A stretch of DNA of 62,938 nucleotides, filler included, from Candidatus Eiseniibacteriota bacterium (GCA_043809585.1; 5 parts of 5 records of this genome joined end to end with filler, not necessarily neighbours in it), one strand, 5' to 3'. Shown: positions 18,789 through 60,707, numbered from the whole stretch's first letter. Numbers and translations are program-made. Notes: generated by a model from the sequence alone, not told the origin.

Positions 18789-18817
18789 TTTCCTTTCCCC
18801 TCTCGACCGACCCGACC

Positions 18818-25963: not shown

Positions 25964-25970
25964 GCCTTCC

Positions 25971-29837: not shown

Positions 29838-29978
29838 GCAAGGCCCGGCGGCTGCGTACTCGGGTAAAAACGTCCTCAATGGCCTTCTTAGGCCACCTCC
29901 GGGCGTTTTCCCCCTTGATCCTTGCCGCCGGACCTTTCGCTCGATCTCGCGACGAAGGAGGTTGTGAAACCGATTCTA
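29838..29978 (+). mobile_element. MITE family A, copy carrying the right TIR
   Basis: Same core as the other two copies; ends GGAGGTTGTGAAACCGATTCTA. Confidence 0.8.
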
Positions 29979-30216
29979 CACGGAACCACTCCGAAAGCCT
30001 CTGGAATCGAGAGGGCGGGGATGCCGGCGTGGTGATCATCGGTGGAGACGACGCTTCCCGCCTTTTTCGCCGCCCACCAGCCCCCACTTTCCCTATCGCC
30101 CCACCTGTGAGATACTTCTTCCGCCAAGAACCCTCGCCTCCCCGCTCCCCGGCGGCGCGTCGGGCGGCGGGAACGGACCCCGTCGACACCGGCACCCGCC
30201 GGACGGGAGCCACCCC

Positions 30217-34227: not shown

Positions 34228-34236
34228 GAGGTCGGG

Positions 34237-41690: not shown

Positions 41691-42629
41691 CTACGAGCCG
41701 CCGATCGTCTCCCACATCTTTCGGAGATACACCTCGATCATGTCGCGGCGGTGGTCGAGGGGAAGCGCGTCGTTCTTGACCGTCCGGCACTCCTTTCGCG
41801 CCCGGCGGACCAAGTTATCCGGTTCGTCCCGTCCCGAGGGATCGCAGTCGATCAGGACCGGCGCCGGTGAAACGCCTCCAAGAGAGACGCGGATTCCTTC
41901 CCCGGGCCGGGCGGCCGCGGCGACGGTGAGCGAGGAGAAGTCGACGCTCCGCCGGAGCCGGAGCTTCTTGTACCACCAGGCGGCGGTCCGGCCCGGCACC
42001 TCGATCCCCGTGAGAATCGCGTCCCCCTCCAGGCCCCGGTGGCTCGCCATTCCGTCCTGCGCGTAGAGGCCGGACAGGGGGTCGCGACGCGTCCCGGTCC
42101 GGTCGCGGATCTCCGCTTTGGCGCCCAGCGCGAGCAGCGCCGGGGCCGTATCGGAAACGTTCCGCGCGAAGCAGCCCGTCTCCGCCCCCGTGACGAGGCA
42201 TGTCTCCCCGCCGTCGCGAAGACAGGAACCGATCGCGACGCGCCACTGGAGCGACTGGTTGTAGAACGAGCACCGGTTCCGAACGAGCAGGTTGCCGCCG
42301 AGGGTGGCGGTCTTCCGGATCACGGGGCTCGCGACGGCCCGGGCCGCCTCGGCGAGAAGAGGGAGTTTCTCGCGAACGAGAGACGAACCCTCGATCTCGG
42401 CGAGGGTCGTCATCGATCCGATCGCGATCGAATCGCCCCTGTCCGCGACGCCCGACAGCCCTCCGATTTCCGTCAGGTCGATGAGAACTCGCTCGGCCAC
42501 GAGCCGCTGCTTCAGATGGACGATGAGGTCCGTGCCGCCCGCAATGTAGGCGTAGTCGCCCGGATGCCGCCCGGCCGCCGCGAGGGCTTCGTCGATCGTT
42601 CGGGGGCGCAGGTACTCGGCTTCTCTCAC
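41691..42629 (-). CDS. hcrB: 4-hydroxybenzoyl-CoA reductase beta subunit (FAD + 4Fe-4S)
   Basis: IAGGTDL, ATLGGNL; HcrB-type insert RCSFYNQS.QWR...GSC...GETC.....GCFA; LRRSVDF. Confidence 0.88.
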   Translation of the reverse strand: MREAEYLRPRTIDEALAAAGRHPGDYAYIAGGTDLIVHLKQRLVAERVLIDLTEIGGLSGVADRGDSIAIGSMTTLAEIEGSSLVREKLPLLAEAARAVASPVIRKTATLGGNLLVRNRCSFYNQSLQWRVAIGSCLRDGGETCLVTGAETGCFARNVSDTAPALLALGAKAEIRDRTGTRRDPLSGLYAQDGMASHRGLEGDAILTGIEVPGRTAAWWYKKLRLRRSVDFSSLTVAAAARPGEGIRVSLGGVSPAPVLIDCDPSGRDEPDNLVRRARKECRTVKNDALPLDHRRDMIEVYLRKMWETIGGS

Positions 42630-44908
42630 TTCTTCCCGACCCTCCGGATTTCGCGGAGCACCTTCTCCGGCGTGATCGGCAACTCCCGCATGCGGACCCC
42701 GACAGCATCGTGGATGGCGTTCCCGATCGAAGGGAGAACCGGGTGAATCGGCCCCTCGCCCGCCTCCTTCGCCCCGAACGGGCCTTCCCGATCATTCGAC
42801 TCGACGATGGTCACGTCCATCTCGGGTGTGTCCAGGGTCGTCGGAATCCGGTAGTCCGTGAAGTTCGCGTTCACGATTCGCCCGCCTTCATAACGGAGTT
42901 CCTCGGTGAGCGCCTGCCCGAGTCCCATGTGGATACAGCCCTCGATCTGCCCTTCCACGGCGAGCGGGTTCAGGGCCTTGCCGCAGTCGTGGGCCCCCCA
43001 CACTTTCACGACCCTGACGACCCCCGTGTCCGGCTCCACCTCCACTTCGCTGATGAACGCGCCGAAGCTGTAGGCCGGGCTTAAGCCCGCGCCGGACCCC
43101 TTGAACTTCCCCCCCATTTTCGGCGAGACATACATCCCCGATTCGACGAAGGAACCGCACCCGGCGAGGGCGATCTCGACCGCCTCGGCCCAGGTCAGGG
43201 AGAGAGAGCCGCCCTCGGTCCCGACCGTTCCGCCGGCGAACCTCAGGTCCCCGGCGGCGACCCCTTTTTCCTCGGCGACCGCGGCCGCGATCCGGTCGCG
43301 GATCTTCTCCACCGCCGATTTGGTCGCGTTGCCGGCCATGAACGTCACGCGGCTCGAATAGCTCCCGAGGTCGACGGGCGTGAGCATCGTGTCCGCCGAC
43401 TCGACTCCGACGAGATCCATCGAGATTCCGAGGACCTCGGCGGCGATTTGCGCGAAGATCGTATCGCTCCCCTGCCCGATGTCGCTCGCCCCGCTGAAGA
43501 TCACGACGCGGCCGTCGAGATCGAGTTTCCCGTGAACGACGGTCTGGGGATAACGATTCCATATGATCGGGAGGGCGCTTCCCGAGATGTAGAACCCGCA
43601 GGCGACGCCGAGGCCGCGGCCGTAGGGAAGCCCGCCGCGCCGCCCGTCCCATCCCGAGCGCTCCCGAACCGCCCGGAGGCACTCCCTCACTCCGTTGCTC
43701 GTGATCCGGAGCCGGCCGACGGTGAGTGTGTCGGAAGGGAGGAAGTTCCGCTCCCTGAGGTCGCACGGATCGATGCCGGCCTTCTCGGCGAGCATGTCGA
43801 GGGCCACTTCCATCGCGTAGCGCGGGTTGACCGCGCCGTGACCGCGCATGGCGCCGCACTGCGGCTTGTTGGTGTAGACGCGGCGCGTGCGGAAACCGAA
43901 CCGGTCCACCCGGTACGGACCCTGAAGGAGAACCCCGTTGTAGTACGTCGTGACGACTCCGAAGCTTCCCGAGGCGCCCCCGTCGATCACGATGTCGGCG
44001 TCGATCCCGGTGAGCGTCCCTTCGCCGTCACAGCCGACGGAGAGGGTCATCTTCGTCGGGTGACGGCCGTGGTTCGCCAGAAAGACCTCCTCCCGCGAGA
44101 ATACCGTCTTGACGGGCCGCTTCGTCTTCAGGGCGAACCAGGCGGTGATGATCTCGTGGGGGAAGGGATCGCTCTTTCCGCCGAATCCCCCGCCGAGCGC
44201 CGGCTTCTTCACGCGGACGCAGTGCATCGGAAGGCCCAGCACCCTCGAGAGCGTGCGGTGCAGGTAGTGGGGGACCTGGGTCGCGCTGATGACCGTGAGA
44301 CTTCGGCCCTCGTCGACGAGCGCCACCGTCGCGTGAGGCTCCAGGAACGCGTGGGTCACGCCGGCGAAGGAAAACTGCTCAGTGCAGCGGAGCGGTGATT
44401 CGTCGAGAGCTTTTTCGGGTTCGTGGAAGCGCATCTCGGCGATCTTGTGGATGTTCGTGTTCCCCTTGCCGTGAGGGTGGATCTTTTCGCCCTCCCGGCA
44501 CTCCTCGAGAGACTCCTCGGGGGTGAGAAACTCACGGATCGGCTCGTACTCGACGCGAATGAGGCGGATCGCCTCTTCCGCCGCCGCCTCGCTCTCCGCG
44601 GCGACCGCGGCGACGATCTCCCCGACGTACCTCACCTTCTCGACCGCCATGGCCGTCTCGTCGCGGCTCACGGTGAGAACGCCGAAGGTCTCCGGCATGT
44701 CGACGCCGGTCGCCAGGGCCGCCACTCCGGGGGCTTTCGCGGCCCCCTCGGTGTCGATCTTCACGATTCGGGCGTGGGGGTGCGGGCTCCGGAGGAACTT
44801 CACGTGCAGCATGTTCGGGAACCGGAAATCGCCCGAGTACTTCACCTGCCCCGTCACCTTGCCGACGGCATCGATATAGGGAGTCCGCTTTCCGATCGGT
44901 CCGCTCAT
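42626..44908 (-). CDS. hcrA: 4-hydroxybenzoyl-CoA reductase alpha subunit (molybdopterin)
   Basis: KVTG..Y..D, TQVPHY, GGGFGGK, GAMRGHG, DLGSYSSRVTFMAGNA, FGAKEAGEG; true start MSGPIG at 44908. Confidence 0.88.
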   Translation of the reverse strand: MSGPIGKRTPYIDAVGKVTGQVKYSGDFRFPNMLHVKFLRSPHPHARIVKIDTEGAAKAPGVAALATGVDMPETFGVLTVSRDETAMAVEKVRYVGEIVAAVAAESEAAAEEAIRLIRVEYEPIREFLTPEESLEECREGEKIHPHGKGNTNIHKIAEMRFHEPEKALDESPLRCTEQFSFAGVTHAFLEPHATVALVDEGRSLTVISATQVPHYLHRTLSRVLGLPMHCVRVKKPALGGGFGGKSDPFPHEIITAWFALKTKRPVKTVFSREEVFLANHGRHPTKMTLSVGCDGEGTLTGIDADIVIDGGASGSFGVVTTYYNGVLLQGPYRVDRFGFRTRRVYTNKPQCGAMRGHGAVNPRYAMEVALDMLAEKAGIDPCDLRERNFLPSDTLTVGRLRITSNGVRECLRAVRERSGWDGRRGGLPYGRGLGVACGFYISGSALPIIWNRYPQTVVHGKLDLDGRVVIFSGASDIGQGSDTIFAQIAAEVLGISMDLVGVESADTMLTPVDLGSYSSRVTFMAGNATKSAVEKIRDRIAAAVAEEKGVAAGDLRFAGGTVGTEGGSLSLTWAEAVEIALAGCGSFVESGMYVSPKMGGKFKGSGAGLSPAYSFGAFISEVEVEPDTGVVRVVKVWGAHDCGKALNPLAVEGQIEGCIHMGLGQALTEELRYEGGRIVNANFTDYRIPTTLDTPEMDVTIVESNDREGPFGAKEAGEGPIHPVLPSIGNAIHDAVGVRMRELPITPEKVLREIRRVGKK

Positions 44909-45372
44909 CCCGATTCCTCGTTCCCGGCGGCGCGCACGGCCTCGATAATCTTGGCGAAACCGGTACACCGGCAGAGATTTCCGGCGAGGGCCTCCCGCAC
45001 GTCCGCCTCGGAGGGACATCGGTTCTCCTCGAGGAAGGGGATCGACGTCATGACGATCCCGGGCGTGCAGTAGCCGCACTGCATCCCCCCCCTCTCGACG
45101 AGCCGGCGCTGAACCGGATGGAGATCCTCTCCTCTCGCGACCCCCTCGATCGTGACGATCTTCTTCCCTTCGCAACGAAGGGTCGGCGTGATGCAGCCGA
45201 GGACGGGCCGGCCGTCGACCAGAACCGTGCACGCTCCGCACGAGCCGGAGTCGCACCCCGGCTTCGTGCCGGTCAGCCCGATCCGTTCCCGAATCGTGGT
45301 GAGGAGCATCTCGTGCGGATCGACGAGGAAGGGCCGGTCGAAGCCATTCACGTTCAAGGTCACCGCCCGCAT
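44905..45372 (-). CDS. hcrC: 4-hydroxybenzoyl-CoA reductase gamma subunit (2x 2Fe-2S)
   Basis: GTKPGCDSGSCGACTV..C; QCGYCTPG; NLCRCTG. Confidence 0.88.
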   Translation of the reverse strand: MRAVTLNVNGFDRPFLVDPHEMLLTTIRERIGLTGTKPGCDSGSCGACTVLVDGRPVLGCITPTLRCEGKKIVTIEGVARGEDLHPVQRRLVERGGMQCGYCTPGIVMTSIPFLEENRCPSEADVREALAGNLCRCTGFAKIIEAVRAAGNEESG

Positions 45373-46557: not shown

Positions 46558-47303
46558 AGCACGCCGGCGCCGATGCTCCTCCCTCCGTCCACGTGGATCA
46601 CCTGGCCCGTGATGAACGCCGCCTCCTCCGACGCGAGAAACGAGACCGCCGCGGCGACATCTTCCGGCCCTCCCGCCTTGCCGGAAGGCTGCAGCCTCAC
46701 GAGCTTCTCGTAGACCGCGCCGGGAAGGGCCCGGGTCATCGGCGTGTCGATCAGTCCCGGCGCCACGGCGTTCACCGTGATGCCGTTCCGGGCGAGCTCG
46801 AGGGCGAGGGATCGCGTGAATCCGACGACGCCCGCCTTCGACGCGGAGTAGTTCGTCTGCCCCGGGTTACCGAGCCAGGCGCGGGAGGCGATGTTTACGA
46901 TGCGCCCCGAACCCTGCCTGCGCATGACGGGAGCCACCTCCTTCGCGACGATCCAGGCCCCCTTCAGATTGACCGTGAGAACCGCGTCGAAGTCCTCTTC
47001 CGGCATCCGCCAGATCACGTTGTCCCGGAGGATGCCGGCGTTATTGACGAGGACATCGATACGCCCGGTCCGATCGAGGACGGCGGAGACGAAGCGCGCC
47101 ACGTCCTCGGAACGGGTCACGTCGCCCGTGAAGGAGCGGGGATTCCCCTCCTCCGCCGACGCTTCCTCGCCGAAGCCGATGTCGATCACGAAGACCGACG
47201 CCCCCTCCGCCACGAAGCGTTCGGCGATCGACCGCCCGATTCCGCGGGCCGCCCCCGTCACGACGACACTCTTCTCTTCGAACCGTTTCAACGGTCTTTC
47301 CAT
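46554..47303 (-). CDS. SDR oxidoreductase (FabG/BzdZ-like; putative 3-hydroxypimeloyl-CoA dehydrogenase)
   Basis: TGAARGIG, NNAG, ASRAWLG, YSASK; operon context. Confidence 0.85.
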   Translation of the reverse strand: MERPLKRFEEKSVVVTGAARGIGRSIAERFVAEGASVFVIDIGFGEEASAEEGNPRSFTGDVTRSEDVARFVSAVLDRTGRIDVLVNNAGILRDNVIWRMPEEDFDAVLTVNLKGAWIVAKEVAPVMRRQGSGRIVNIASRAWLGNPGQTNYSASKAGVVGFTRSLALELARNGITVNAVAPGLIDTPMTRALPGAVYEKLVRLQPSGKAGGPEDVAAAVSFLASEEAAFITGQVIHVDGGRSIGAGVL

Positions 47304-48073
47304 TCCGGTTTGCGCCGCTCCAGGAAGGAAAGAATCCCTTCGTTCCCGTCTTCCGTTTCCATGAGCCCGCCTGTGTAAAGTCCCTCGAGCCTTTCAAGGC
47401 CATCGAGGAGGCTCTCGTGAAAGCGCCATTGCGCCGCCCGAACGGCAAAGCGAAGCGACGAAGCGCTTCTCGGAAGGATGTGCTTCCCGATCCACTCGTC
47501 GACTCCGGCCTCCATCGATTCCCGATCGCCGTAGGCCGTCGTCGCGAGTCCGATCGCCGCCGCGTCCGCCCCCTTGATCGAACGTCCCGTGAGCAGGAGA
47601 TCGTCGGCCCGCGCCTGCCCGATCTTCATCGGAAGAATGAGTGATGCCGGCGGCGCGAAGACCCCGAGCTGGATCTCCGGGCAGCCGAGCCTCGCCGTCT
47701 CGTCCACGAACAGGAAGTGGCACGCGAGCGCCAACTCGAACCCGCCGCCGAGGCACTGGCCCGAAACGACCGCCGCCGCCGGAACGGAGGACCGGACGAG
47801 GGACCGGAAGAGGCCGTGAAACTGCCGCAGCATCTCCGGCGCCCTTTCCTTCGTGTGCTCCTCCACGCTCGCGCCGAAACTGAAGTGATCTCCTGCCCCC
47901 GTGATCAGAAGCAACTTCACCTCCGGCCGACCCTTCAGGCCGTCGAGCTCGGTTTGCAGCCCCGCCATCATCTCCCCGTCGAGGATGTTCCCCTTCGGCG
48001 CGTTCAAAGTGATTCGAAGGACCTGTCCGTCATGAGCCGGTTCGCCGATGATCTTCCCCGCCATCTCGCTCAC
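47288..48073 (-). CDS. dch: Cyclohexa-1,5-diene-1-carbonyl-CoA hydratase
   Basis: PKGNILD, HFSFGASVEEH, CLGGGFEL, PEIQLGVFAP; follows oah. Confidence 0.88.
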   Translation of the reverse strand: MSEMAGKIIGEPAHDGQVLRITLNAPKGNILDGEMMAGLQTELDGLKGRPEVKLLLITGAGDHFSFGASVEEHTKERAPEMLRQFHGLFRSLVRSSVPAAAVVSGQCLGGGFELALACHFLFVDETARLGCPEIQLGVFAPPASLILPMKIGQARADDLLLTGRSIKGADAAAIGLATTAYGDRESMEAGVDEWIGKHILPRSASSLRFAVRAAQWRFHESLLDGLERLEGLYTGGLMETEDGNEGILSFLERRKPEWKDR

Positions 48074-49248
48074 CTCGGCAGAATCGCGTCGACGAGTTCC
48101 TCATCCCACGGATGGCCCTCGGCGAGCATGCGTCGCAGTTTCACGAAATCAACCTCCCGGTTCCCCTTCGGCCCTTCGTTGAACGCCCGGAACCCCGCTT
48201 TCGCCTCGGTCATCATGTTCAAGGCGAGCCAGTCTCGGTTGGACTGCTGGTTCCGGTCCCAGTGCTCGAGCTTCTTCTTGCGCACGCTGTTCAGCGTCTT
48301 GTTCACGCAATCGGGCATCATGTAGAGGAAACTCGTGGCGAGTCGTCCGACGGCCTCATCGAGCGGCGTGAGGTCGATCGTTCCCGCCCCGAGCGTCTCC
48401 TTCCCCGCTTTCTGGTCGTCGCCCCTCTTCCGCCGGCCGTACACGACGGCACCCGATTCGTCCAGCCAGCGGTCCGTAACGACGAGCGGGTTTCTGACGA
48501 ATGCCCCTCCTACCTTCAGCACGGGCACGACCTCCGTGATCAGGCCGAAAAGCTTGGCCTCGTAGGCAGACCACATTTCACAAAGCGTGCAACTCTGAAT
48601 CGCCCGCTCGATGCCCACGAAGAGGTGCAGGAAGTCGGTGCTCCCGCCGTCCGGAGCGCTTCCGTGCTTCGACCCGGCCTGTCCGAAGACGGCCAGGTCG
48701 CTCGCGACGGTCAGATCGCACGCCATCCCGATCTCCTGTCCGCCGGCGATTCTCATACCATTGACGCGGCAGATCACGGGCTTGTCGCAGTGGAGGATCG
48801 ACGTGATCATGTCGTTGAAAAGGCGCATGTACTGCTTGTACTCGAGGGGCCGCCCGGCGTAGTACTCGGCGTACTCCTTGGTGTTCCCGCCGGTGCAGAA
48901 AGCACGGTCCCCGACGGCGCTGAAGACCACAGAAACGACGGAGCGGTCGTTCGACGCCTGCCGAAAGGCGAGAATGACCTCCTTCACGGCCGCCGTCGTG
49001 TACGAATTGTACTGCTTCGGATTGTTCAGGAAGATCCACGCGTTGTGAAGCCCCTCGACCGGCTTCCCGTCCATGCCGATACAAGGACGAAGCTCGTAGA
49101 GGATTTCGCTGAAATCGTGCTCCACGATGTTGTGACTGACGAGATCGTGGCCCATGGTTCGATGTCTCCCTCTTAGGCGCGGAACGTCCGTCCGCGCGGT
49201 CTCCTCCGGGGCGGCCCCGCCGGCCGACCGGGTCGTTTCCATCTCCAT
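48070..49248 (-). CDS. oah: 6-oxocyclohex-1-ene-1-carbonyl-CoA hydrolase (ring opening)
   Basis: NAWIFLNNPKQYNSYTT, FCTGGNTKEYAEYYAG, RVNGMRIAGGQEIGMACD, WLALNMMTEA (BamA/BzdY). Confidence 0.95.
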   Translation of the reverse strand: MEMETTRSAGGAAPEETARTDVPRLRGRHRTMGHDLVSHNIVEHDFSEILYELRPCIGMDGKPVEGLHNAWIFLNNPKQYNSYTTAAVKEVILAFRQASNDRSVVSVVFSAVGDRAFCTGGNTKEYAEYYAGRPLEYKQYMRLFNDMITSILHCDKPVICRVNGMRIAGGQEIGMACDLTVASDLAVFGQAGSKHGSAPDGGSTDFLHLFVGIERAIQSCTLCEMWSAYEAKLFGLITEVVPVLKVGGAFVRNPLVVTDRWLDESGAVVYGRRKRGDDQKAGKETLGAGTIDLTPLDEAVGRLATSFLYMMPDCVNKTLNSVRKKKLEHWDRNQQSNRDWLALNMMTEAKAGFRAFNEGPKGNREVDFVKLRRMLAEGHPWDEELVDAILPR

Positions 49249-50303
49249 TAGAAATCCGGGATGAGCACGGTCCGCTTCGAGAGATTCCCCGCAAGGGTCT
49301 CACGGAATACTTCGTTGATCGTAGACAGAGGAGCCGTCTCCGTAAAGGGTTTCAGCGCGAGCTTACCCTCGGCGACGAGATCGATCACCTCCGGGTAGAG
49401 CTCCGGCCTGCAGCCCCATGTGCCGATGATGGCGGCGTCGAAGGCCATCAGATTCGAGAGACGCACCTCGAGCTTGTCCAGCGTGAAACCGACGATCGAC
49501 AGGGTCGAGGCGATGCCGACGAGGGCGAAGGCGAGCTCTTGCCCCCCCTTCGTGCCCGACATCTCGTATATCTTCCAGCCATGCGCCGGCGCGCCCATCT
49601 CCTTGCAGCGCGCTTTGACCTCGCCTTTGATCTCCTTGACCCCGAGTCCCGAGGAATCGACCGTCGCCGAAACTCCGATTTCGCCGAGCCGTTCCAGCTT
49701 CCCGCCGTCGATGTCGATGGCGAGGACTTTTCCACCGAGAATCCGAGCCAGCTGGGCCGCATACACTCCGACGCCGCCGACGCCGATCACGATCGCGAGG
49801 TCCCCCTCCCCGAGACCGCTCTTCAGGATCACCTGGTAGGGCGTGGACACGGCGTCGGCGATGACGGCGAGCTCCGCGAGCGAATGCCCCGCGAGCGCGC
49901 GGTCGGGAACGGGGGCGAGATAGCGGGCCGGCACGACCACATGACTCGCGAAGCCTCCGTGAAAGTCGTTCCCCGGCATGAGCTGTTTTCGGCAGATGTT
50001 GCTCCGCCCGCTCCGGCAGAGGTCGCAATCTCCGCAGGGCAAGACGGCGGGCACGACGACCGCTCTTCCTTTCCACTCCGGCGGTCCTTCGATGACGGTT
50101 CCGCTGATCTCGTGCCCGAGGACGAGCGGCGGCTCCTTTCTCGTCGGAACGCCGTAATGCCAGAAGCTCAGATCCGTGTGACAGACGCCGCATCCGGCCA
50201 CCTCGACTACCGCGTCGCCCGGTCCCGGATCCGGGGGAGCCAGTGTGACCTTCTCGAGGGGCCGGTCTTTCCCCGTCATCTGATAGGCATGAATCTCGTT
50301 CAT
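49248..50303 (-). CDS. had: 6-hydroxycyclohex-1-ene-1-carbonyl-CoA dehydrogenase
   Basis: GCGVCHTD, LGHE, PCGDCDLC, MPGND..GGFASH, RLSNLMAFDA..GTWGC. Confidence 0.92.
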   Translation of the reverse strand: MNEIHAYQMTGKDRPLEKVTLAPPDPGPGDAVVEVAGCGVCHTDLSFWHYGVPTRKEPPLVLGHEISGTVIEGPPEWKGRAVVVPAVLPCGDCDLCRSGRSNICRKQLMPGNDFHGGFASHVVVPARYLAPVPDRALAGHSLAELAVIADAVSTPYQVILKSGLGEGDLAIVIGVGGVGVYAAQLARILGGKVLAIDIDGGKLERLGEIGVSATVDSSGLGVKEIKGEVKARCKEMGAPAHGWKIYEMSGTKGGQELAFALVGIASTLSIVGFTLDKLEVRLSNLMAFDAAIIGTWGCRPELYPEVIDLVAEGKLALKPFTETAPLSTINEVFRETLAGNLSKRTVLIPDF

Positions 50304-50372
50304 TCTCGTCCTCCCTCGGGGACCGACTCCCCGGCGATGCATCTTCCCCCGCAGCGCTTTCGGACCCTTCGC

Positions 50373-51176
50373 TCAGGACCGCGACCCGATTTGCCGTGCG
50401 ATCACCGCCGCGCCGAGTGCGACGCAAAGCTGCGGTTCGTGCGCGACCTCGATCGGCGCGTCCATCGCCCCGCCCATCAGCTCGCCGAGGTATGGATGAT
50501 GGGCGATCACGCCGCCGCAGAGAATCACCGGAACACCGGCGGGAACGGACATGCGCCGGATCCGGTTGACCAGGGAGAGGTAAATCCCCCGGGCAATGTC
50601 CTCGAGCGGAACGCCGGAGAACTTCCACTCGAGGATTTCGGTGCGCGCGAACACGGTACAGAAACTGTTGATCGTCCGATCCGTAATCGAACTTCTCGCG
50701 AGATTGCTCATCTCGGCGATCTCGAGCTCCGCCTTTTCGGCGATCTCGGTGATGAAGGTGCCCGTTCCCGCCGAACACTTGTCGTTCATGCTGAAGCCGA
50801 GAACGGAACCGTCGGCGCCGCTCTCGATCACCTTCAAGTCCTCGCCGCCGATGTCGATGATGCACTTCCGAGTCTTGTGCGTAACAGAAACCCCTACCGA
50901 CGCGCAGACGAGTTCCGGCCGCCGCAACTCGCACTCGAAGCGGTGCCGCCCATAGCCCGTCGCGCATACCCCTTCGATCGAAAAGAGGTCGCGGGCCTGC
51001 TCGACCGTCTCCTCGAACCGCCTCTTCCGGCGGCTGAGTGTCGGCATGACCTCCCGGAAGACCGGCTCGTCATTCCCGCCTACGACCACGAGCTTCGTGT
51101 AAGTCGAACCGATATCGACGCCGAGATAGTAACGATTCGTCTCTTCCACGCGCGATCCACGCCCTTCGCCCGTCAC
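50373..51176 (-). CDS. HgdC/FldI-type 2-hydroxyacyl-CoA dehydratase activase (ASKHA ATPase, 4Fe-4S)
   Basis: GVDIGSTYTK, ATGYGR, IDIGGEDLK, MNDKCSAGTG, CTVFA. Confidence 0.88.
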   Translation of the reverse strand: MTGEGRGSRVEETNRYYLGVDIGSTYTKLVVVGGNDEPVFREVMPTLSRRKRRFEETVEQARDLFSIEGVCATGYGRHRFECELRRPELVCASVGVSVTHKTRKCIIDIGGEDLKVIESGADGSVLGFSMNDKCSAGTGTFITEIAEKAELEIAEMSNLARSSITDRTINSFCTVFARTEILEWKFSGVPLEDIARGIYLSLVNRIRRMSVPAGVPVILCGGVIAHHPYLGELMGGAMDAPIEVAHEPQLCVALGAAVIARQIGSRS

Positions 51177-52204
51177 TCCGGGGAATGCTCGATCAGGTGA
51201 ATCAGGGCCGTCACGGATTGGTTCAACGGAGTCGGAAGACAGTGCTTGTGACCGTAGTACACCATCTTCCCGTTCAGGTTGTCGATTTCTGTCCGCCGGC
51301 CTTCTTCGATGTCCACGAGCATCGACGGCCGGTGGTGTCCCGCGTTCTTCAAGTAGCGCACGCTGAAACGGCGGAACTTCTTTCCAAGATCGATTCCCTC
51401 GGCATCGGCGATCCGAACCGACTCGTCGATAAGCGCCTCGACCAACTCCAGCGTCAAGGGATAATCCATTACGTCCTTCATCGTCTTCCGCGTAATGGCG
51501 CAGACCGCGCTGAGCGCGCTGTTCAGAATCGCCTTTTCCCAGACGTAATCCTGGATGTCTTCCGGGATCTCCGTGGTCAGGCCCGCCGCGTTGAGCATCT
51601 CGGCGAACCTCTTCGCCACATCATCACCGTTCGGAAGGAGTGGCGCGATGTAGTTCGGCGGGTTGAAGAAGCTGACGTGTGTGATATTCGGGGCGCTCTT
51701 GTTGCCGGCGTAGTTGATGACCATCCGGAGGGTCCTGTCGTCTCCCACGGCGCGCGCCACGGTCACCTCGTTGTCGATGCCGTTCTGCGCCACCACCACG
51801 TACATGCGGTCCGTGACGATCTCCTTGATCTGATCGACGACTTTCCTCAGCCCCGGCGTCTTCACGGCGATGACGATCACGTCGAGATCGTACATCTTCA
51901 ATTCCTGGATGGAATAGCACGCTTCGGTGATCTTCACGGACTTGACGATGGTGCTCTCGAGGTGAAGTCCCTTCTTCTTCATCGCGTCGATGACGAGAGG
52001 GTTCATCTCGCAGGGCACGACAAGCGCGCCCGCCTCCATCAGATGGGCGACGAGCACCGTTCCGACCGGCCCCATTCCGACGACGCCGATTCGCATCGGC
52101 CTGTCGTTCCTCTCTTCGCTTTCGGCCTTCTCGTGCTTCTCGCGCTTCTCCCGCTTCTCGTGTTTCTTGTGTTTCTCGCTCTTCTCAGTGGCCTTCTTGC
52201 TCAT
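51173..52204 (-). CDS. Ketopantoate reductase-family (PanE/ApbA) 2-oxoacid reductase
   Basis: GMGPVG, AVK, QNGI, WEKAILN, SMLVD..GRRTEIDNLNG; charged N-terminal extension. Confidence 0.88.
   Translation of the reverse strand: MSKKATEKSEKHKKHEKREKREKHEKAESEERNDRPMRIGVVGMGPVGTVLVAHLMEAGALVVPCEMNPLVIDAMKKKGLHLESTIVKSVKITEACYSIQELKMYDLDVIVIAVKTPGLRKVVDQIKEIVTDRMYVVVAQNGIDNEVTVARAVGDDRTLRMVINYAGNKSAPNITHVSFFNPPNYIAPLLPNGDDVAKRFAEMLNAAGLTTEIPEDIQDYVWEKAILNSALSAVCAITRKTMKDVMDYPLTLELVEALIDESVRIADAEGIDLGKKFRRFSVRYLKNAGHHRPSMLVDIEEGRRTEIDNLNGKMVYYGHKHCLPTPLNQSVTALIHLIEHSPE
52127..52189 (-). repeat. 7 x 9-bp imperfect tandem repeat encoding (H/R/S/T)EK-type triplets
   Basis: Plus-strand units CTTCTCGTG, CTTCTCGCG, CTTCTCCCG, CTTCTCGTG, TTTCTTGTG, TTTCTCGCT, CTTCTCAGT. 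Confidence 0.75.
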
Positions 52205-52237
52205 GAAGTCACTCCGGGGGAAAGAGGAACATCGAGT

Positions 52238-53425
52238 TCAGTCACGCGCGATCTGCATGACGAACGTCTCCAGGATCGTTCGAGTCTGAAGGTCGGAAAA
52301 AAACCGGAGATCGTTCAGGTCACCGTTCACGACGATCGTAGGCTTCCCCGTTTCTTCGCGAACTCTCCGGTCGAGCCCGAACCGGTTGTTCGAGTTGTTG
52401 AAACATGTCTTCGAGTCATGAAAAACGACACCGTCGATTCCGAAATCGTCGATCATCTCGCGGATCACCACGAGCTTAGCGTTCTCGCTCCGGTTTATGA
52501 AGATCCGTGTATACGCGAGGGCCATCGACTCGAGGGGACGGTCCGGATCGAAGTCGTCAAACACCCAGCTGTTGCAGTAGGTCGACGCCACGACGGCAGC
52601 CTTCTGCTCGACGAAGAAATCGGCGAGCGACCGCAAGCGTCCCCAGATCGGCATCCCCTCCCAGTAGATCCGCGCCCTCTCTCCGGGCACCGCCGGGCCC
52701 ACGCCATCCTCCAGCTCCCTCAGAAGGTCCTCGTAGAATTCCACGCAGGCCCTCGTTCCGCGGAGTATCACGATCGGCGCCATGAGGATCGTGCCGTCGA
52801 AAAAGGAGAGTGGAGACGGGGTGCGGCGCGCCGTCCCGAGCACTCTCTTCCAGAGGTCCGAGCCCTCACGCGAGAGGGCGACGACGCGCCGGAGGTTCTT
52901 CGGATCGAGCGTCTCGCCGCGTATCTCCTCGCCGACGCGGATCAGGTCACGGTATCGGGAGACGACATGGCGGATGTCGTCTTCGGCGACTTCTTCGAGG
53001 TGGCGCGGCGGGTGGATCCCCACGACGGGAACGCCAAGCTCGCGCCCGAAAAACCCGAACCAGTCGGCAACCTCCCGGCACTGGTTGGTGCAGTAGACGA
53101 TGAGGTCGGGCTTCGGGATCGACGGGAGGCCGTACGCCTCGCGGAGCGGCGTCGCGCCCGAGAGCCAGGCCCCGATGTCCGACGTCAGGTACGAGCATAT
53201 CTCGCCCCCGAAACCGGCCTGGTGGGCGCGGGGAATGTACTTCTCCGCGAGCCGCGAAGCGCCGAGGATCGCCCCGTGGTTCTCGGGGAAATAGACCTGA
53301 AATCCGAGGGCCCGGAGAATCTCGGCGGGGCCGGCGCTCGTGCACCACGCGAGGGGGCTCGAGAGAGACGTGTAGTACTCCCCCAGCAGCGTCTTCAGCT
53401 TCTCCTGCGACTTCAACCGTGGCAT
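52238..53425 (-). CDS. 2-hydroxyacyl-CoA dehydratase subunit (HgdA/FldB/BcrB family)
   Basis: WCTSAGPAEI..FPENHGA, ICSY..DIG, PKPD..NQC..WF, FH..KTC (three Fe-S Cys). Confidence 0.87.
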   Translation of the reverse strand: MPRLKSQEKLKTLLGEYYTSLSSPLAWCTSAGPAEILRALGFQVYFPENHGAILGASRLAEKYIPRAHQAGFGGEICSYLTSDIGAWLSGATPLREAYGLPSIPKPDLIVYCTNQCREVADWFGFFGRELGVPVVGIHPPRHLEEVAEDDIRHVVSRYRDLIRVGEEIRGETLDPKNLRRVVALSREGSDLWKRVLGTARRTPSPLSFFDGTILMAPIVILRGTRACVEFYEDLLRELEDGVGPAVPGERARIYWEGMPIWGRLRSLADFFVEQKAAVVASTYCNSWVFDDFDPDRPLESMALAYTRIFINRSENAKLVVIREMIDDFGIDGVVFHDSKTCFNNSNNRFGLDRRVREETGKPTIVVNGDLNDLRFFSDLQTRTILETFVMQIARD

Positions 53426-53427
53426 CG

Positions 53428-55155
53428 CTACTCCAGGCGAATCACGTACACCTTCTCGTTCGCCGGATCTTCGGAGCCGTAGAGGGATTCGATATCCGCC
53501 TTGAACACTCTCGCGACCACACCCGGCGCGAGCTTCATCGAGGGAGTCAACTCCTCGTTTTCGATCGAAAGCTCGTGATCGATCAACATGGCCGCGCGCG
53601 GGCGCGCGTATTTCGCGTCGATCGAGTCGGCGACGCGCCTCATGCAGCGACCGAGGCAGTGCGCCAGATCCCGCGGGGCCTCCGGGCACTCGCAGGCGTC
53701 CCGCACGCTGGTTCCGTCGGGAACACGGGAAAACATCGCGCGGTTCGGAAAGAGCAGAACCACCGGGTAATCGCGGCCGCTCCCGGCGACGAAGGCGTGC
53801 GACAGATAGGCGCAATCCTTGACGATCAGGTTTTCGATCTCGGTCGGGATCACGATCTCGGCGTTGCTCAGTTTGAAGATCCGATCCTTCCGCGAAATGA
53901 GCCGAACCCCCGCCTCGGTGATCGCGCCCACGTCCCCCGTGGCGAACCAGCCCTCGTCAAGCATGGCCCGCTCCGTGTCCACCGGGTTCCGGTAGTAGCC
54001 GCTCATCACGTTCGGACCGCGAACGAGGATCTCGTCGTCCTCCCCGAGCTTGACCGACACACCCGGGATCGGCTTTCCGACGACACCGGGATCGCGCGGA
54101 ATGCTCGGATCCGTCACGGTGCAGCAAGGGGACGTTTCGGTCAGTCCCCATCCCTCGTACACGGGTATGCCCCGCTCTTCGAAAACATCCGAGATGTTTT
54201 TCGGGAGAGGCGCCGCGGCGGTGAAAATGAACCGGAGCTCGTCGTGGAACACGGCCTTCTCGACCTCCCGGTCCCCCGCCGCGCGGGACGTGATCTCCTG
54301 GTAGACGCGGGGCACGCTGAAGAAACAGGTCGGCCGAACCCGCATCCAGTTTTCGAGCAGGACATCCATGTCCTTTCCGTAGCCGTGTTCGAGGGAGAGG
54401 ACGGCGCCGTTCGAGAGGGCCGCGAACTTCTCGAAGATGCCCCCGAAGCTGTGATGCCACGGAAGGTAGCTGAGGAAGCGGTCCTTCTCGGTCAGCTTCC
54501 AGAGAACGCGCATCGCCGCCTGCTGGGAGAGGATGTTCGAGTGGGTCAACTGGACGAGCTTCGGCCTCCCCGTCGTGCCCGACGTGTACATCATGAGGCA
54601 GACCGCCCCCGGCGCGACTTCGGTGCCCGCGATCTCCATCCCCGACGTCTCACCCCCGGCGAGGAGTTCCTCGAAGCGGACGACGTTTCCCCCGGCAGCC
54701 TCCCCGACAGGATCGAAGACGACGACGGCCCCGAATTCGTCGGGCGAATCGAGCTTCCCGTACTGTTCGGTGTCCGCGGTTACCACCACCGCGGGCTCGC
54801 AGAACCGGACGAGGCCCTGCGCCTTCGCGGCGGGATAGCCGTGGAAGATCGGAACCGAGACGGCTCCCATCGACATCACGGCCAGCTCGATCTCGAGCAT
54901 CTCGCGCCGGTTCCGGGAGAGAACCGCGACACGGTCGCCCCGCCCGACTCCGCGCGCCGCGAGCGCCGCCTGCAGGAGGATCACGTCGTTCCCGAGCCGC
55001 CGCCACGAAAGGGGGCGCATACTCCCGCCCGCGGCGTGCTGGAAAACCGGGTGCCCGTCGAATCGGGCTACGTTCTCCACGAGCATGGTGGCGATGTTCG
55101 GTGGAAACGGCGGAAGGGAGTGTTCTGAGGTGAGTCCATCTCCGGAACGAGTCAC
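53428..55155 (-). CDS. AMP-forming acyl-CoA synthetase (long-chain FACL-like)
   Basis: YTSGTTGRPK, YLPWHH, EGWGLTET, RGPNVMSGYY, TGD, ELTPSMK; GTGA overlap with bcrD. Confidence 0.88.
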   Translation of the reverse strand: MTRSGDGLTSEHSLPPFPPNIATMLVENVARFDGHPVFQHAAGGSMRPLSWRRLGNDVILLQAALAARGVGRGDRVAVLSRNRREMLEIELAVMSMGAVSVPIFHGYPAAKAQGLVRFCEPAVVVTADTEQYGKLDSPDEFGAVVVFDPVGEAAGGNVVRFEELLAGGETSGMEIAGTEVAPGAVCLMMYTSGTTGRPKLVQLTHSNILSQQAAMRVLWKLTEKDRFLSYLPWHHSFGGIFEKFAALSNGAVLSLEHGYGKDMDVLLENWMRVRPTCFFSVPRVYQEITSRAAGDREVEKAVFHDELRFIFTAAAPLPKNISDVFEERGIPVYEGWGLTETSPCCTVTDPSIPRDPGVVGKPIPGVSVKLGEDDEILVRGPNVMSGYYRNPVDTERAMLDEGWFATGDVGAITEAGVRLISRKDRIFKLSNAEIVIPTEIENLIVKDCAYLSHAFVAGSGRDYPVVLLFPNRAMFSRVPDGTSVRDACECPEAPRDLAHCLGRCMRRVADSIDAKYARPRAAMLIDHELSIENEELTPSMKLAPGVVARVFKADIESLYGSEDPANEKVYVIRLE

Positions 55156-55973
55156 GCGCCCGCCTCCTGAAGCTTGAAGTGCCGGAAACCTCCCCAGAGC
55201 GCGGCGCCGATCGCCCCCGCGGAGACGCACTCGCTCGCCGCGAACACATCGAGGTTCATGCCCCGCTCGTCGAGCGTCTCCTTCATGGCCGCGACGAGAC
55301 CCGTGTCCAGCGCAAGACCGCCCGTGAAGGCGACGGGAGACTCGACCTTCAGCCGCGAAAGAAGTCGGACGATCCTGATCGCGATGGACTGGTGAATTCC
55401 CTTGATGATGTCGGGAATCGGAATCCCCTGGGAGACCATGTTGATCACGTCCGTCTCGGCCAGCACGGCGCAGATGCCGCTCGTCTTCGCCGGGTTCGTC
55501 GATTCGAGCGACAGAGGTCCGACTTCGTCGATCGTGACGCCGAGGTAGCGGGTGATGTTCTCGAGGAACTGACCCGATCCGGAGGCGCACTGCCCGGTCA
55601 TGGCATAGTCCTTGACGCGCCCTCCGTCCTCGATCGACATGACACGACAGTAGAGGGCGCCGAAGTCGACGACGGTCCGCACTTCGGGATGGTAATGGCA
55701 GGCCCCGCGCGAATGGGTGGTCATGCTGTAGAAATGACCCCGTTTCCTCGGCACCAACTCCCCCTCGCCGGTGGAGGCGACGTAGAGCATATCCTCATAC
55801 CGGAGCCCATGCCGGTCGAAGAGATCCTCCATGAGCTGGTCGATGATGAGCGTAGGGTTCCGTTTCCGAATCTTCTCGACGACCAGATCGACGACGCTGG
55901 GCTCGGGGCCGTAGTCGACCAGCGCGATCTTGATGAAGCTGCTGCCCACGTCGATTCCCAGGGTGTAGTTCAT
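55152..55973 (-). CDS. bcrD: Benzoyl-CoA reductase subunit D
   Basis: GIDVGS, STGEGE, GHFYSMTTHSRGA, MTGQCASGSGQFLENI, ICAVLAETDVINMVS. Confidence 0.93.
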   Translation of the reverse strand: MNYTLGIDVGSSFIKIALVDYGPEPSVVDLVVEKIRKRNPTLIIDQLMEDLFDRHGLRYEDMLYVASTGEGELVPRKRGHFYSMTTHSRGACHYHPEVRTVVDFGALYCRVMSIEDGGRVKDYAMTGQCASGSGQFLENITRYLGVTIDEVGPLSLESTNPAKTSGICAVLAETDVINMVSQGIPIPDIIKGIHQSIAIRIVRLLSRLKVESPVAFTGGLALDTGLVAAMKETLDERGMNLDVFAASECVSAGAIGAALWGGFRHFKLQEAGA

Positions 55974-55975
55974 GG

Positions 55976-57271: not shown

Positions 57272-57763
57272 GCGAATCGCCTCCGTTTCCGGGTCGACCG
57301 AGACTTCGCACGGGACGGGCCGAACCACGCGCCGGTTGCCCGGCTGGCGATCACTCGCCCCCCGCCGGAGGACATCCTGACATTTCGTTCACCGGGTCTT
57401 GCGCGCCACCCATCCGCCAGCACGCGGAAGAGGATCCGGTCGGGGCCGCACGGTCGGTACGGTCTCGTCCCGCGCAAAGCGGGTCACCGCCCCGACGGCG
57501 GCCGGTCTCCTCCAACACTCGCCGTCGATAGCGGCATCACCGCCGTCGAACAGGTGAGTTCGGCTCGATCCTCTTCGGGGATTCCCAGGCGGCGGCCGTC
57601 GAACGGCACAGAGGGCTGTCTGAGAAGGCCGGCTCGTAAAGGCCCACGGGGCCGGGCAGAGATCACGGGGGGGGGAGAATGGGGCGCCCCGCCCGCCTTC
57701 CCGGCAGGAAATCGCGGAGTTTCAGAGAGCCGTCGCCTCGCCCAAGCGCCTTAATCCGTTGCC

Positions 57764-59155: not shown

Positions 59156-59157
59156 GG

Positions 59158-60336: not shown

Positions 60337-60707
60337 GATACGATCCGTCTCCGTCTCTGGGCGGTTGCGGTCACGAATGACGGGCGTCCCGGGCGGGCGA
60401 GGGGATCCCGATCGGCTGCGCCGGGGCACGGGGCCCCGCGGGCCCCTTCCGTAAATAGAATAGTCGAGAAGAGGGTCCGACTCCAGAGGGAAATGGCGGA
60501 GGGGCGCCGGAGCAGGAGCGTCCGGCGGGGGGTGTGCGGGGACACGACATCTGTTTCGATCCGTCCGCGCCCGACCAAACCGGCAGGGCATCTCCGGCCC
60601 CGTTGTCTCGTCGGCGCGGTGTCTTCTGTTGATTTCCGCTCCTTCGGCGGGCGCCCGGCCGCCGGGAATCGGAATTGTGTGGGGCTGTTGAAAAAGGGTG
60701 AGAACCG

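Follow-up and report, generated by a model that had tools for sequence, protein, structure and literature searches.

Four genes of radical-dehydratase type within a benzoyl-CoA reductase operon: a conserved module and candidate aryl-lactyl-CoA feeder

What do a ligase, a lone dehydratase-type subunit, a reductase and an activase do in the middle of a benzoyl-CoA reductase operon? The question is raised by a stretch of 62,938 nucleotides from Candidatus Eiseniibacteriota bacterium (the window; five records of GCA_043809585.1 joined end to end with filler), in which a sequence-only reading had seen a single-locus route from phenylalanine and tyrosine to benzoyl-CoA. The four genes lie as described there, closely coupled on one strand at 50373-55155 between bcrD and had, and their family assignments were upheld by Pfam and NCBIfam profile scores:

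53428..55155, minus strand: acyl-CoA ligase (AMP-forming), 575 aa, GTG start with AGGAGG upstream; PF00501 237 bits
52238..53425, minus strand: X, a single HGD-D family subunit of the catalytic (alpha, HadB-like) type, 395 aa; PF06050 199 bits
51173..52204, minus strand: NAD(P)H 2-oxoacid reductase of the PanE/ApbA (ketopantoate reductase) family; TIGR00745 182 bits (cut-off 141)
50373..51176, minus strand: HgdC/HadI-type ATP-dependent [4Fe-4S] activase, 258-267 aa; TIGR00241 162 bits (cut-off 125)

The module is inserted between bcrCBAD and had-oah-dch with its stops and starts overlapping or nearly touching. The ligase start overlaps the bcrD stop in a GTGA, the ATG of X lies 2 nt past the ligase stop, and the activase start overlaps the PanE stop in another GTGA. 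The surrounding genes are as follows:

59158-60591, minus strand: bcrC (ORF); TIGR02263 442 bits (cut-off 421)
57884-59317, minus strand: bcrB (ORF); TIGR02260 638 bits (cut-off 487)
55976-57271, minus strand: bcrA; best model TIGR02259, 446 bits, yet under its cut-off of 578
55152-55973, minus strand: bcrD; best model TIGR02261, 285 bits, yet under its cut-off of 313
49248-50303, minus strand: had; TIGR03201 442 bits (cut-off 339)
48070-49155, minus strand: oah; TIGR03200 562 bits (cut-off 464)
47288-48073, minus strand: dch; TIGR03189 234 bits (cut-off 293)
46554-47303, minus strand: SDR; Pfam adh_short_C2 223 bits
45376-46557, minus strand: thiolase; TIGR01930 392 bits (cut-off 241)
44905-45372, minus strand: gamma subunit of an Hcr-like molybdenum enzyme
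42626 to about 44998, minus strand: alpha subunit of the same enzyme
41691-42629, minus strand: FAD subunit of the same enzyme; PF00941 134 bits

[quoted passage not shown] The products of had, oah and dch (47288..50303) serve ring hydration, oxidation and hydrolysis, and the Hcr-like enzyme (41691..45372) scored 813 bits with TIGR03194 (cut-off 995) and 172 bits with TIGR03193 (cut-off 258). A HAD/ECH fusion and thiolase had also been read beside the module. This holds for relatives, whose operons enclose a true fusion and a thiolase, but the pair in the window is very divergent, lies on the other strand, and has 21% identity to a true fusion and no Pfam match. Breakdown of 3-hydroxypimeloyl-CoA already calls for thiolase, SDR and HAD/ECH genes; because the lower benzoyl-CoA pathway needs such beta-oxidation genes too, they are no proof of cinnamoyl-CoA oxidation.

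The module recurs in the genomes of at least 590 species, most of them MAGs of the FCB group, and linkage to bcr is usual. Synteny was sampled in 80 X-centred loci from different species, each count being limited to those whose flanks were long enough. X is followed by PanE in 68 of 73, the activase lies downstream in 66 of 72 and the ligase ahead of X in 49 of 71, while an ADP-forming synthetase (ACD) occupies the place of the ligase in 18/80; all four functions that lead from a 2-oxoacid to an enoyl-CoA are present and conserved together. Linkage to bcr in relatives, on which the sequence-only reading had staked itself, was found as well (bcrD upstream in 55/67 loci, had downstream in 53/63). 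This order is kept across phyla, and the arrangement is not due to chance. The genes are also, as had been supposed, foreign to canonical bcr operons: they are missing from operons of proteobacterial type, 19 of the 26 loci centred on bcrA in which 5 kb or more follows bcrD being without them. The module's partners include aromatic-ring genes of several kinds: Bcr-type BCR, a Bzd-type BCR (L038) and HcrCAB, which in L078 stands immediately upstream of X. In 5/5 related genomes the operon has an Hcr-like alpha gene at a distance of 2.6-10.7 kb, which fits a tyrosine branch.

X has an HGD-D fold of the catalytic alpha type, with HadB alpha as its top match by both sequence and fold. Among PDB sequences the scores were 154 bits for HadB alpha (profile 191), 82 for MbdO, 63 for BzdO, 34 for DCCP and 22 for HadC, and Foldseek gave a TM of 0.89 to 3o3o_A compared with 0.80-0.84 to folds of the ring-reductase type. 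By these comparisons X is nearest to the catalytic HadB subunit and not to the ring reductases. Cys77, Cys116 and Cys341 of X align with BzdO Cys95, Cys128 and Cys380 and with the cluster cysteines of HadB, and Glu48 aligns with Glu65, the catalytic glutamate of BzdO; these residues are invariant in 46/46 and 9/9 relatives. X is thus predicted to hold a [4Fe-4S] cluster by three cysteines, with an open iron site and a catalytic glutamate. Val119 occupies the position of BzdO His131, and Gly32 that of BzdO Trp46 (Phe in HadB), so that residues associated with Birch reduction are absent from X and a roomier acyl pocket is expected. Two additional cysteines, Cys28 and Cys284, are specific to the clade, invariant, and placed at or near the acyl pocket; Cys284 aligns with a ligand cysteine of DCCP, and Cys28 stands where MbdO has a cysteine. 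X has five invariant cysteines in all, and one C-domain ligand position of DCCP lacks a cysteine in X. The two extra cysteines have no role in the dehydratase mechanism and count against the proposed route.

Exactly three PF06050 genes (bcrC, bcrB and X) were found in 5/5 genomes, which leaves no second X-type subunit there, and no beta-type gene was found in the module across the 80 loci. X therefore forms no alpha/beta heterodimer with a HadC/HgdB-type beta subunit, and the canonical Fld/Hgd-type dehydratase envisaged by the sequence-only reading has to be given up. To our knowledge all characterised 2-hydroxyacyl-CoA dehydratases are alpha/beta heterodimers, and the lack of a beta subunit counts against the route. 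For X itself a homodimer is predicted (score 0.74; best control 0.00), though the score may stem from solved dimers (HadBC, BzdNO and DCCP) that the model had already learned.

The nearest solved relative of X, at 27% identity, is the HadB alpha subunit of the (R)-2-hydroxyisocaproyl-CoA dehydratase system of Clostridioides difficile (LdhA, HadA, HadI, HadBC; PDB 3o3m/3o3n/3o3o, 4eht). X keeps the three cysteine ligands and the glutamate of HadB, and module and Had system alike combine a reductase for 2-oxoacids and an enzyme of CoA activation with a dehydratase and its activase. Unlike the Had system, the module has no HadC-type beta subunit (5/5 genomes), its reductase belongs to the PanE/KPR family and not to the LdhA-type D-2-hydroxyacid dehydrogenases, an ATP-dependent ligase or ACD stands in place of the CoA-transferase, X adds Cys28 and Cys284 and has Gly32 for Phe, and the genes lie in a catabolic benzoyl-CoA operon instead of a fermentative reductive branch. 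X was rejected as a HadB equivalog (NF052455, 188 bits versus a cut-off of 750). In FldABC/FldI, an activase-dependent radical dehydratase converts (R)-phenyllactyl-CoA to cinnamoyl-CoA; unlike the module, that enzyme is a heterotrimer with a CoA-transferase among its subunits, and its product goes on to be reduced and excreted. The likeness to the phenyllactate dehydratase FldABC and FldI of Clostridium sporogenes is one of reaction, which would be the same as that proposed here. The Fld system is named in PMC13416013.

With the catalytic subunits of class I BCR (BzdO, MbdO, BcrB; PDB 8s02, 9g87) X shares the fold and, by alignment, the three-cysteine [4Fe-4S]-OH2 site and glutamate, and an ATP-driven HgdC-like electron donor is common to BCR and the module. 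X was rejected as such a subunit, since it falls well under the family cut-offs (TIGR02260 124 versus 487, TIGR03191 56 versus 449) and has Val and Gly for His131 and Trp46; nor does it have a double-cubane partner of the BzdN/BcrC type of its own. DCCP with DCCP-R (PDB 6eno, 7yyl) offers a homodimer of one HGD-D type subunit, as predicted for X, and a dedicated activase-type ATPase as in the module. Apart from the shared Cys284 position, the resemblance to DCCP is weak (profile 34 bits) and the N-terminal half of X matches the alpha type instead of DCCP; X was also rejected as a double-cubane cluster protein (NF040772, 41 bits versus 350), with five and not six conserved cysteines.

The activase matched HadI (4eht) at 124 bits, HgdC (1hux) at 114 and MbdQ at 108, and is closest to the dehydratase systems and not to the ring reductases. 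Both of its cluster cysteine motifs align with HadI, which points to a bridging [4Fe-4S] cluster, with two cysteines from each monomer, as in a dedicated activase of the HgdC/HadI type. The reductase has a core beginning at an ATG at 52096 (307 aa), preceded by a 36-aa extension rich in Lys and Glu. It passes TIGR00745 and contains both PF02558 and PF08546, which places it in the PanE/ApbA subfamily; its best PDB match is 2ew2 (82 bits), with which the WEK, NG and TEID motif positions align. It was rejected as a 2-dehydropantoate 2-reductase proper, because the best equivalog, NF005091, gave 156 bits versus 252 and all others were under their cut-offs. The KPR family is described as including D-2-hydroxyisocaproate and D-mandelate dehydrogenases. 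PanE and activase are fused in 45 loci and separate in 20, and PanE is fused to an X-type domain in one protein cluster (P0122), which argues that it is part of the system and not a stray pantothenate gene.

The ligase is an ANL acyl-CoA ligase (PF23562 26 bits, in addition to PF00501) with a cysteine-rich C-terminal subdomain at residues of about 436-575. The cysteines of its motif (Cys448, 488, 490, 500 and 504) are conserved without change in 64-69 of the 69 sequences aligned, and PDB matches reach only to about residue 445. Where ACD replaces the ligase, this domain is retained as a separate gene. The top NCBIfam matches are of the fatty-acid type (PRK12582, FadD11), all far under their cut-offs, and no specific equivalog was passed, models for benzoate-CoA and 3-hydroxybenzoate-CoA ligases included; the fatty-acid (FadD11/ACSL) type and the lack of an aromatic-acid model over cut-off speak against an aryl route. 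The use of a ligase and not a CoA-transferase had been anticipated, and the annotated loci agree, showing ligase or synthetase and no CoA-transferase. By analogy with the Fld and Had pathways, a ligase would be needed because the thioester is kept for beta-oxidation, with no recycling of CoA by a transferase.

The proposed route would be self-contained, much like the reductive amino-acid branch of clostridia. The PanE-family enzyme would form the (R)-2-hydroxy acid by reducing a 2-oxo acid, most likely phenylpyruvate or 4-hydroxyphenylpyruvate from transamination of phenylalanine or tyrosine. The ligase, or in some lineages the ADP-forming synthetase, would yield the 2-hydroxyacyl-CoA, ATP being spent by the ligase. 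X would act as a homodimer, each subunit presenting one [4Fe-4S] cluster to the substrate, and once primed with one electron from the ATP-driven activase would eliminate water by way of a ketyl radical to give cinnamoyl-CoA or p-coumaroyl-CoA. Beta-oxidation would lead to benzoyl-CoA or 4-hydroxybenzoyl-CoA, which would pass to the Hcr-like enzyme, BCR, Dch, Had and Oah. We infer the order of these reactions, their direction and stereochemistry, and the aromatic substrate; the gene families, conserved active-site residues, synteny, fusions and missing beta subunit are features of the loci themselves. The markers of the phenylacetate route, which the module had been thought to bypass, are indeed mostly missing from five related genomes (phenylacetate-CoA ligase over cut-off in 0/5, IOR in 1/5), and benzoate-CoA ligase is likewise over cut-off in 0/5, so that the operon needs another source of benzoyl-CoA. 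Of the one-locus route as first drawn, the families, tight coupling and bcr linkage speak for it; the aryl substrate comes from context, and the lack of a beta subunit, the fusions and the two extra cysteines of X sit outside a simple linear scheme. The fusions join PanE (the first step) to activase or X (the third) and not to the ligase (the second), a pattern unexpected under a strictly linear free-acid scheme and one hinting that the activase is used stoichiometrically and not catalytically. In favour of the route, L038 carries a HisC-family aminotransferase (304 bits, cut-off 277) flanked by X-PanE on one side and a second PanE on the other, but aminotransferases are nearby in only 2/80 loci, the second having only 34% identity, and none was found in the window; this scarcity counts against the route.

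Stoichiometric electron use would suit a different enzyme. X and the activase may form an ATP-driven reductase or other radical enzyme resembling BCR or DCCP, whose substrate would be an analogue of benzoyl-CoA or some intermediate of the pathway, with the ligase or ACD activating benzoate or 4-hydroxybenzoate and the PanE-like protein serving with X as a ketoreductase, possibly on a CoA ester. X shares a superfamily with BcrB and BzdO, its extra cysteines fall on DCCP and MbdO positions, the PanE-activase fusion sets the activase one to one with a metabolic enzyme as in BCR, and the module ligase could supply the missing benzoate-CoA ligase; in L093, L097 and L101, moreover, the set is split into ACD-PanE and X-activase pairs. 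We nevertheless consider this unlikely, in view of the absent His131 and Trp46 counterparts, the scores far under the BcrB, BzdO and DCCP cut-offs, the incomplete double-cubane cysteines, the greater nearness of X to HadB and of the activase to HadI and HgdC, and the proteobacterial bcr operons that work without the module.

The same chemistry might instead act on a non-aromatic dicarboxylic substrate (2-oxoglutarate, 2-oxoadipate or 2-oxopimelate), joining the lower pathway at glutaconyl-CoA or 3-hydroxypimeloyl-CoA, or even run in reverse, forming 2-oxoglutarate while the ADP-forming synthetase yields ATP. The lower benzoyl-CoA pathway does run via glutaryl- or glutaconyl-CoA and 3-hydroxypimeloyl-CoA, ADP-forming synthetases are reversible enzymes, and 2-oxoacid:ferredoxin oxidoreductase genes adjoin the module in L038, L032 and L078. 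Against this, the module's links reach beyond lower-pathway genes to ring-reducing genes and the Hcr-like enzyme, the single aminotransferase found embedded belongs to the HisC/aromatic type, a bulky acyl group is suggested by Gly32 at a position otherwise taken by Phe or Trp, and the prevalent AMP-forming ligase is a poor candidate for reverse running; we judge this substrate class rather improbable. It is scarcely credible that unrelated housekeeping genes (a ketopantoate reductase of pantothenate synthesis, a ligase for fatty acids and a redundant pair of BCR-type paralogues) merely happen to sit in the operon. The pass of TIGR00745 and the fatty-acid type of the best ligase models would agree with that, but it is already contradicted by the PanE fusions, and the order kept across phyla, the failure of every ketopantoate reductase equivalog model and the retention of the ligase's cysteine-rich domain after ligase replacement also oppose it.

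No description of this four-gene module was found in our literature search, and the enzyme set is thus widely conserved yet undescribed in the literature searched. Our best reading, to which we give about an even chance, is that the module is a feeder into the benzoyl-CoA pathway, through which the keto acids of phenylalanine and tyrosine, as candidate substrates, would enter by way of aryl-lactyl-CoA.

The operon in the window (about 65% G+C; its T9SS and PorE-type genes make an uncultured FCB-group bacterium the probable source) reads, on the minus strand, bcrC, bcrB, bcrA, bcrD, ligase, X, PanE-family reductase, activase, had, oah, dch, SDR, thiolase, and the gamma, alpha and FAD subunits of a 4-hydroxybenzoyl-CoA-reductase-like (Hcr-like) molybdenum enzyme. 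X is a single HadB-like HGD-D (PF06050) subunit of 395 residues, and with its three neighbors it forms the module considered here:

53428-55155, minus strand: ligase
52238-53425, minus strand: HGD-D subunit X
51173-52204, minus strand: PanE-family reductase
50373-51176, minus strand: activase

GTGA overlaps join bcrD to the ligase gene and the reductase gene to that of the activase, X starts 2 nt past the ligase stop, and 33 nt separate X from the reductase; translational coupling is visible, as judged from the sequence, at the module junctions. BcrB and BcrC exceed their curated cut-offs (638 vs 487 and 442 vs 421), so the benzoyl-CoA reductase (BCR) is complete without X; had and oah are also over theirs. 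Four sequencing runs are listed for 49000-57300, all of DNA, with shares of 0.08-0.29. The PanE-like ORF opens with a 36-residue low-complexity stretch rich in Lys, Glu and His (MSKKATEKSEKHKKHEKREKREK...; 52097-52204, minus strand), its core starting at 52096. Since the gap between X and PanE is only 50-70 nt in relatives, this extension is a local insertion that may be translated.

Upstream, positions 23790-29525 hold genes for MoaA-like and MoeA proteins, a ModC-like ABC ATPase with a TOBE domain, a binding protein and FdhD, a molybdenum cofactor/molybdate cluster consistent with what the Hcr-like molybdenum enzyme would require. Control of the aromatic operon might lie with the genes at 29968-35016 (plus strand), where a 1419-residue sensor kinase (GAF plus six or more PAS domains) is encoded ahead of a response regulator. 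At 38333-41625 (plus strand), a gene with weak likeness to thiolase (about 50 bits with Pfam) precedes one for a 750-residue protein without a Pfam match, which is collinear with a true HAD/ECH fusion (21% identity, E 4e-9); the pair, which faces the operon, is beta-oxidation-like and very divergent.

Relatives of X at 63-69% identity number in the thousands (E <= 0.001 in 6695 of 8000 scored candidates), and among contigs from one genome per species a relative is encoded in 590 of 597 pattern matches. The sequence-only reading had tied the four genes to the bcr operon, and this linkage is kept in relatives, as the bcrD and had counts below indicate.

Neighbors of X among the best 80 of 590 X relatives, counting only loci with enough flank
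PanE, after X: 68/73 loci
Activase, after X: 66/72 loci
Ligase, before X: 49/71 loci
bcrD, upstream: 55/67 loci
bcrA, upstream: 53/64 loci
had, downstream: 53/63 loci
oah, downstream: 47/58 loci
dch, downstream: 44/56 loci

Host labels include Fidelibacterota/Marinimicrobia, Bacteroidota (Flavobacteriales, Chitinophagales, Saprospiraceae), Ignavibacteria, KSB1, Calditrichota, Zixibacteria and Acidobacteriota. As a control from the opposite side, we used 80 metagenome loci centered on bcrA relatives, of which 26 extend at least 5 kb past bcrD and 54 were too short. X is present in 7 of the 26 usable loci, all 7 with a ligase or an ADP-forming acyl-CoA synthetase (ACD) as well. It was not found in the other 19, 16 of which show the proteobacterial order had-oah-dch-bcrCBAD. 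Because X is missing from these 19 of 26 loci, the module is a lineage-specific addition, one that class I BCR does not always require. Two relatives (L097, L101) carry a rearranged operon, bcrCBAD-ACD-PanE-had-oah-dch-X-activase, and a third (L093) is similar but has X-activase ahead of bcrC; in all three the module is divided into an acid-level pair (ACD-PanE) and a thioester-level pair (X-activase).

We placed X by family, PDB and fold scores, as the 150 best cluster representatives and 20 looked-up clusters bear generic names only. Sequence scores in bits, with profile scores in parentheses, are highest for HadB alpha at 154 (191), followed by MbdO at 82 (133) and BzdO at 63 (113); remoter are DCCP (34), HadC beta (22) and MbdN (16). 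An AF2 model (pLDDT 82.6) gives the same nearest relative, with TM values of 0.89 to HadB, 0.80-0.84 to BzdO and MbdO, about 0.76 to DCCP and 0.72 to HadC and BzdN. By alignment, Cys77, Cys116 and Cys341 of X correspond to BzdO Cys95, Cys128 and Cys380, which the BzdNO structure paper describes as the three residues that ligate the water-bearing catalytic cluster; the equivalents of Glu48, Ser30 and Ala31 are Glu65, Ser44 and Ala45, respectively. BzdO His131 is replaced by Val119 in X, and the aligned residue of 3o3m_A (HadB) reads Val120, where the same paper gives alanine as the HadB replacement. BzdO Trp46 becomes Gly32, a position held by Phe in HadB. X thus reads as a HadB-like catalytic subunit that lacks the ring-reduction residues, and its acyl pocket is probably larger. 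A double-cubane identity for X was rejected because the DCCP match is weak and one ligand position has no Cys.

Besides the ligands, X has Cys28 and Cys284, both invariant across its clade (45-46 of 46 sequences, and 9/9 across divergent contexts) and both without equivalents in HadB; their alignment partners are a cysteine of DCCP for Cys284 and one of MbdO for Cys28. Of 104 cluster representatives with 360 or more residues, nine combine Cys28, Gly32 and Cys284; Glu48 and the full set of ligand cysteines are also present in only six of the nine (42% identity or more). Cys28 and Cys284 may be sited where an ancestral second cubane lay, now the acyl pocket.

A search of five related MAG genomes (3.0-4.2 Mb) for family members found no fourth PF06050 gene: each has exactly bcrC, bcrB and X, all within the operon. 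PF01869 matches there are bcrA, bcrD and the module activase, plus one two-domain ORF in a single genome (G001:C1:888196-889893; 1410 aa), remote from the operon, whose two BcrAD_BadFG ATPase domains give it the appearance of a YjiL-like double activase fusion. With two copies of X, complex prediction scored 0.74 (runs 0.71, 0.78 and 0.74) vs 0.00 for the best control, with contacts agreeing by at least 98% between runs and pLDDT of at least 92. In calibration the mark was reached by 20 of 30 proteins solved as homodimers and by 1 of 23 single chains; the score may reflect likeness only, because HadBC, BzdNO and DCCP dimers are already solved. The predicted interface (residues 70-76, 113-124, 138-157, 313-314 and 342-353) flanks the cluster ligands. 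A loan of BcrC to X as beta subunit is unlikely, as the module also accompanies a Bzd-type BCR (L038) and occurs without bcr within 7-10 kb (L010, L078).

The activase is nearest to HadI (124 bits), then HgdC (114), and has both cluster cysteine motifs. The reductase scores over the PanE subfamily model cut-off and under every ketopantoate reductase equivalog cut-off; the Lys, Asn and Glu motif positions line up with those of solved ketopantoate reductases, a family in which D-2-hydroxyisocaproate and D-mandelate dehydrogenases have been reported. PanE and activase share a single ORF in 45 loci; in 20 others, the window included, each has its own. One cluster representative (P0122, 728 aa) has PanE fused straight to X, at 49% identity to X and with all cysteines kept. 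In two others (P0126, P0140) PanE is fused to an HGD-D domain that retains none of the three cluster cysteines; both resemble X-family derivatives that have dispensed with iron-sulfur.

The ligase is of the FadD11/ACSL type, and no specific model reaches its cut-off. An ACD (CoA_binding_2, Succ_CoA_lig and ATP-grasp_5 domains) takes its position in 18 of 80 X-centered loci, and a third AMP-ligase kind occurs in one locus (L073). The C-terminal subdomain of the ligase (53431-53850, minus strand) carries the motif C...CxCP...CLxxC, whose five cysteines are invariant in 64-69 of 69 sequences and persist even after loss of the catalytic TPSxK lysine motif. In 14 loci where an ACD replaces the ligase, the motif is found in a stand-alone ORF of about 155 aa (e.g. 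L064:11237-11719), located between X and PanE in 12 and upstream, between bcrD and the synthetase gene, in the other two (L041, L076); no separate Cys-rich ORF was found in L093, L097 or L101. Persistence of the subdomain as a separate ORF when an ACD replaces the ligase suggests a metal-binding role independent of adenylation. The subdomain looks like an ANL C-subdomain, its fold model (pLDDT 70.7) giving weak matches to these (TM 0.36-0.54, E >0.001); a fold search with this modest model found no metal-site homolog. Five other AMP-ligases of the related genomes are acetyl-CoA-synthetase-like, too distant for comparison of the Cys motif.

Other ring-handling genes accompany the module in relatives. 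L038 has the order BzdNOPQ, FeS-flavoprotein, ACD, X, PanE, HisC-family aminotransferase, second PanE, MocA, XdhC and 2-oxoacid:ferredoxin oxidoreductase; its BzdNOPQ are over the cut-offs of Bzd-type models and its aminotransferase scores 304 bits vs a cut-off of 277. L078 reads ligase, PanE, HAD/ECH, thiolase, SDR, HcrCAB-like, X, activase and oxidoreductase. An Hcr-like alpha gene lies 2.6-10.7 kb from the operon in all five related genomes (818-832 bits), at the level of that in the window (813), all below the cut-off of 995. It flanks 10 of 80 X-centered vs 2 of 80 bcrA-centered loci, both of the latter module-type. In L010, which has the module and no bcr, an AFOR-family tungsten/molybdenum enzyme and a 4Fe-4S protein (17218-19582) follow thiolase, HAD/ECH and ECH genes; the enzyme may be a class II (BamB-like) reductase, its match being to N-terminal AOR only, at 205 bits. 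Benzoate-CoA ligase is over cut-off in 0/5 related genomes, an absence not proven in MAGs. The sequence-only reading also proposed that the phenylacetate route is bypassed; this agrees with the scarcity of markers for that route, phenylacetate-CoA ligase being over cut-off in 0/5 and IOR in only 1/5, and here too absence is not proven in MAGs.

Anaerobic conversion of Phe and Tyr to benzoyl-CoA is known via phenylacetate, for example in Thauera and Aromatoleum. The module mirrors the logic of Had and Fld pathways, in that a 2-oxo acid would be reduced, activated and then dehydrated via a ketyl radical; it differs in having a ligase where those pathways have a transferase, which is what a thioester destined for beta-oxidation would call for. 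We consider the chances about even that the module is an aryl-lactyl route feeding the benzoyl-CoA pathway, with arylpyruvates from Phe and Tyr as candidate substrates. This is argued by its linkage to three kinds of ring-handling genes, by the linked Hcr-like enzyme, by the one embedded aromatic-type aminotransferase (L038), by the lack of canonical aromatic-acid ligases and by the seemingly enlarged pocket of X. Against it count the lack of a beta subunit for X, its two unexplained cysteines and a fatty-acid type ligase, and the beta-oxidation genes are required by the lower pathway anyway. The PanE fusions also count against it, suggesting a coupling tighter, possibly stoichiometric, than a linear free-acid route requires.

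That X has an ATP-driven reductase-type role seems unlikely to us, and identical chemistry on dicarboxylic acids, in either direction, is a still fainter prospect. Equally faint is the prospect that X is no plain dehydratase but a homodimeric ATP-primed radical enzyme of a novel kind. Each subunit would have one open-site [4Fe-4S] cluster as well as Cys28 and Cys284, and the dimer would work in permanent association with a ketoreductase of the PanE type (fused to activase or X) and with the Cys-rich, probably metal-binding ligase subdomain. Such an enzyme could perform thiol-assisted or stoichiometrically ATP-driven chemistry on aromatic 2-oxo/2-hydroxy acyl thioesters, unlike any described family member. 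A coincidental grouping of the genes is very improbable.

To our knowledge, the radical 2-hydroxyacyl-CoA dehydratases described so far all have two subunits and all come from fermenting Clostridia and Fusobacteria. Literature searches found no published description of the module. A Krumholzibacteriota preprint reports bcr genes in FCB MAGs; its main text contains "dehydratase" and "ligase" 0 times each and so makes no reference to the module, though its supplementary tables might list module genes. Fld-type enzymes have been put forward as a hypothesis for benzene degradation (PMC13416013), and oxidation of phenyllactate to phenylpyruvate is reported for Desulfococcus.

A one-subunit relative built into benzoyl-CoA operons would be a new architecture in a mechanistically important enzyme family, and with it aromatic amino acids would gain a new route of catabolism. 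Compact as they are, the genes are amenable to heterologous anaerobic expression, which makes the question directly testable. In sediments, groundwater and sludge, an overlooked capacity to degrade aromatic compounds anaerobically would then belong to Bacteroidota, Fidelibacterota, Ignavibacteria, KSB1 and allied lineages of protein degraders (at least 590 species genomes).
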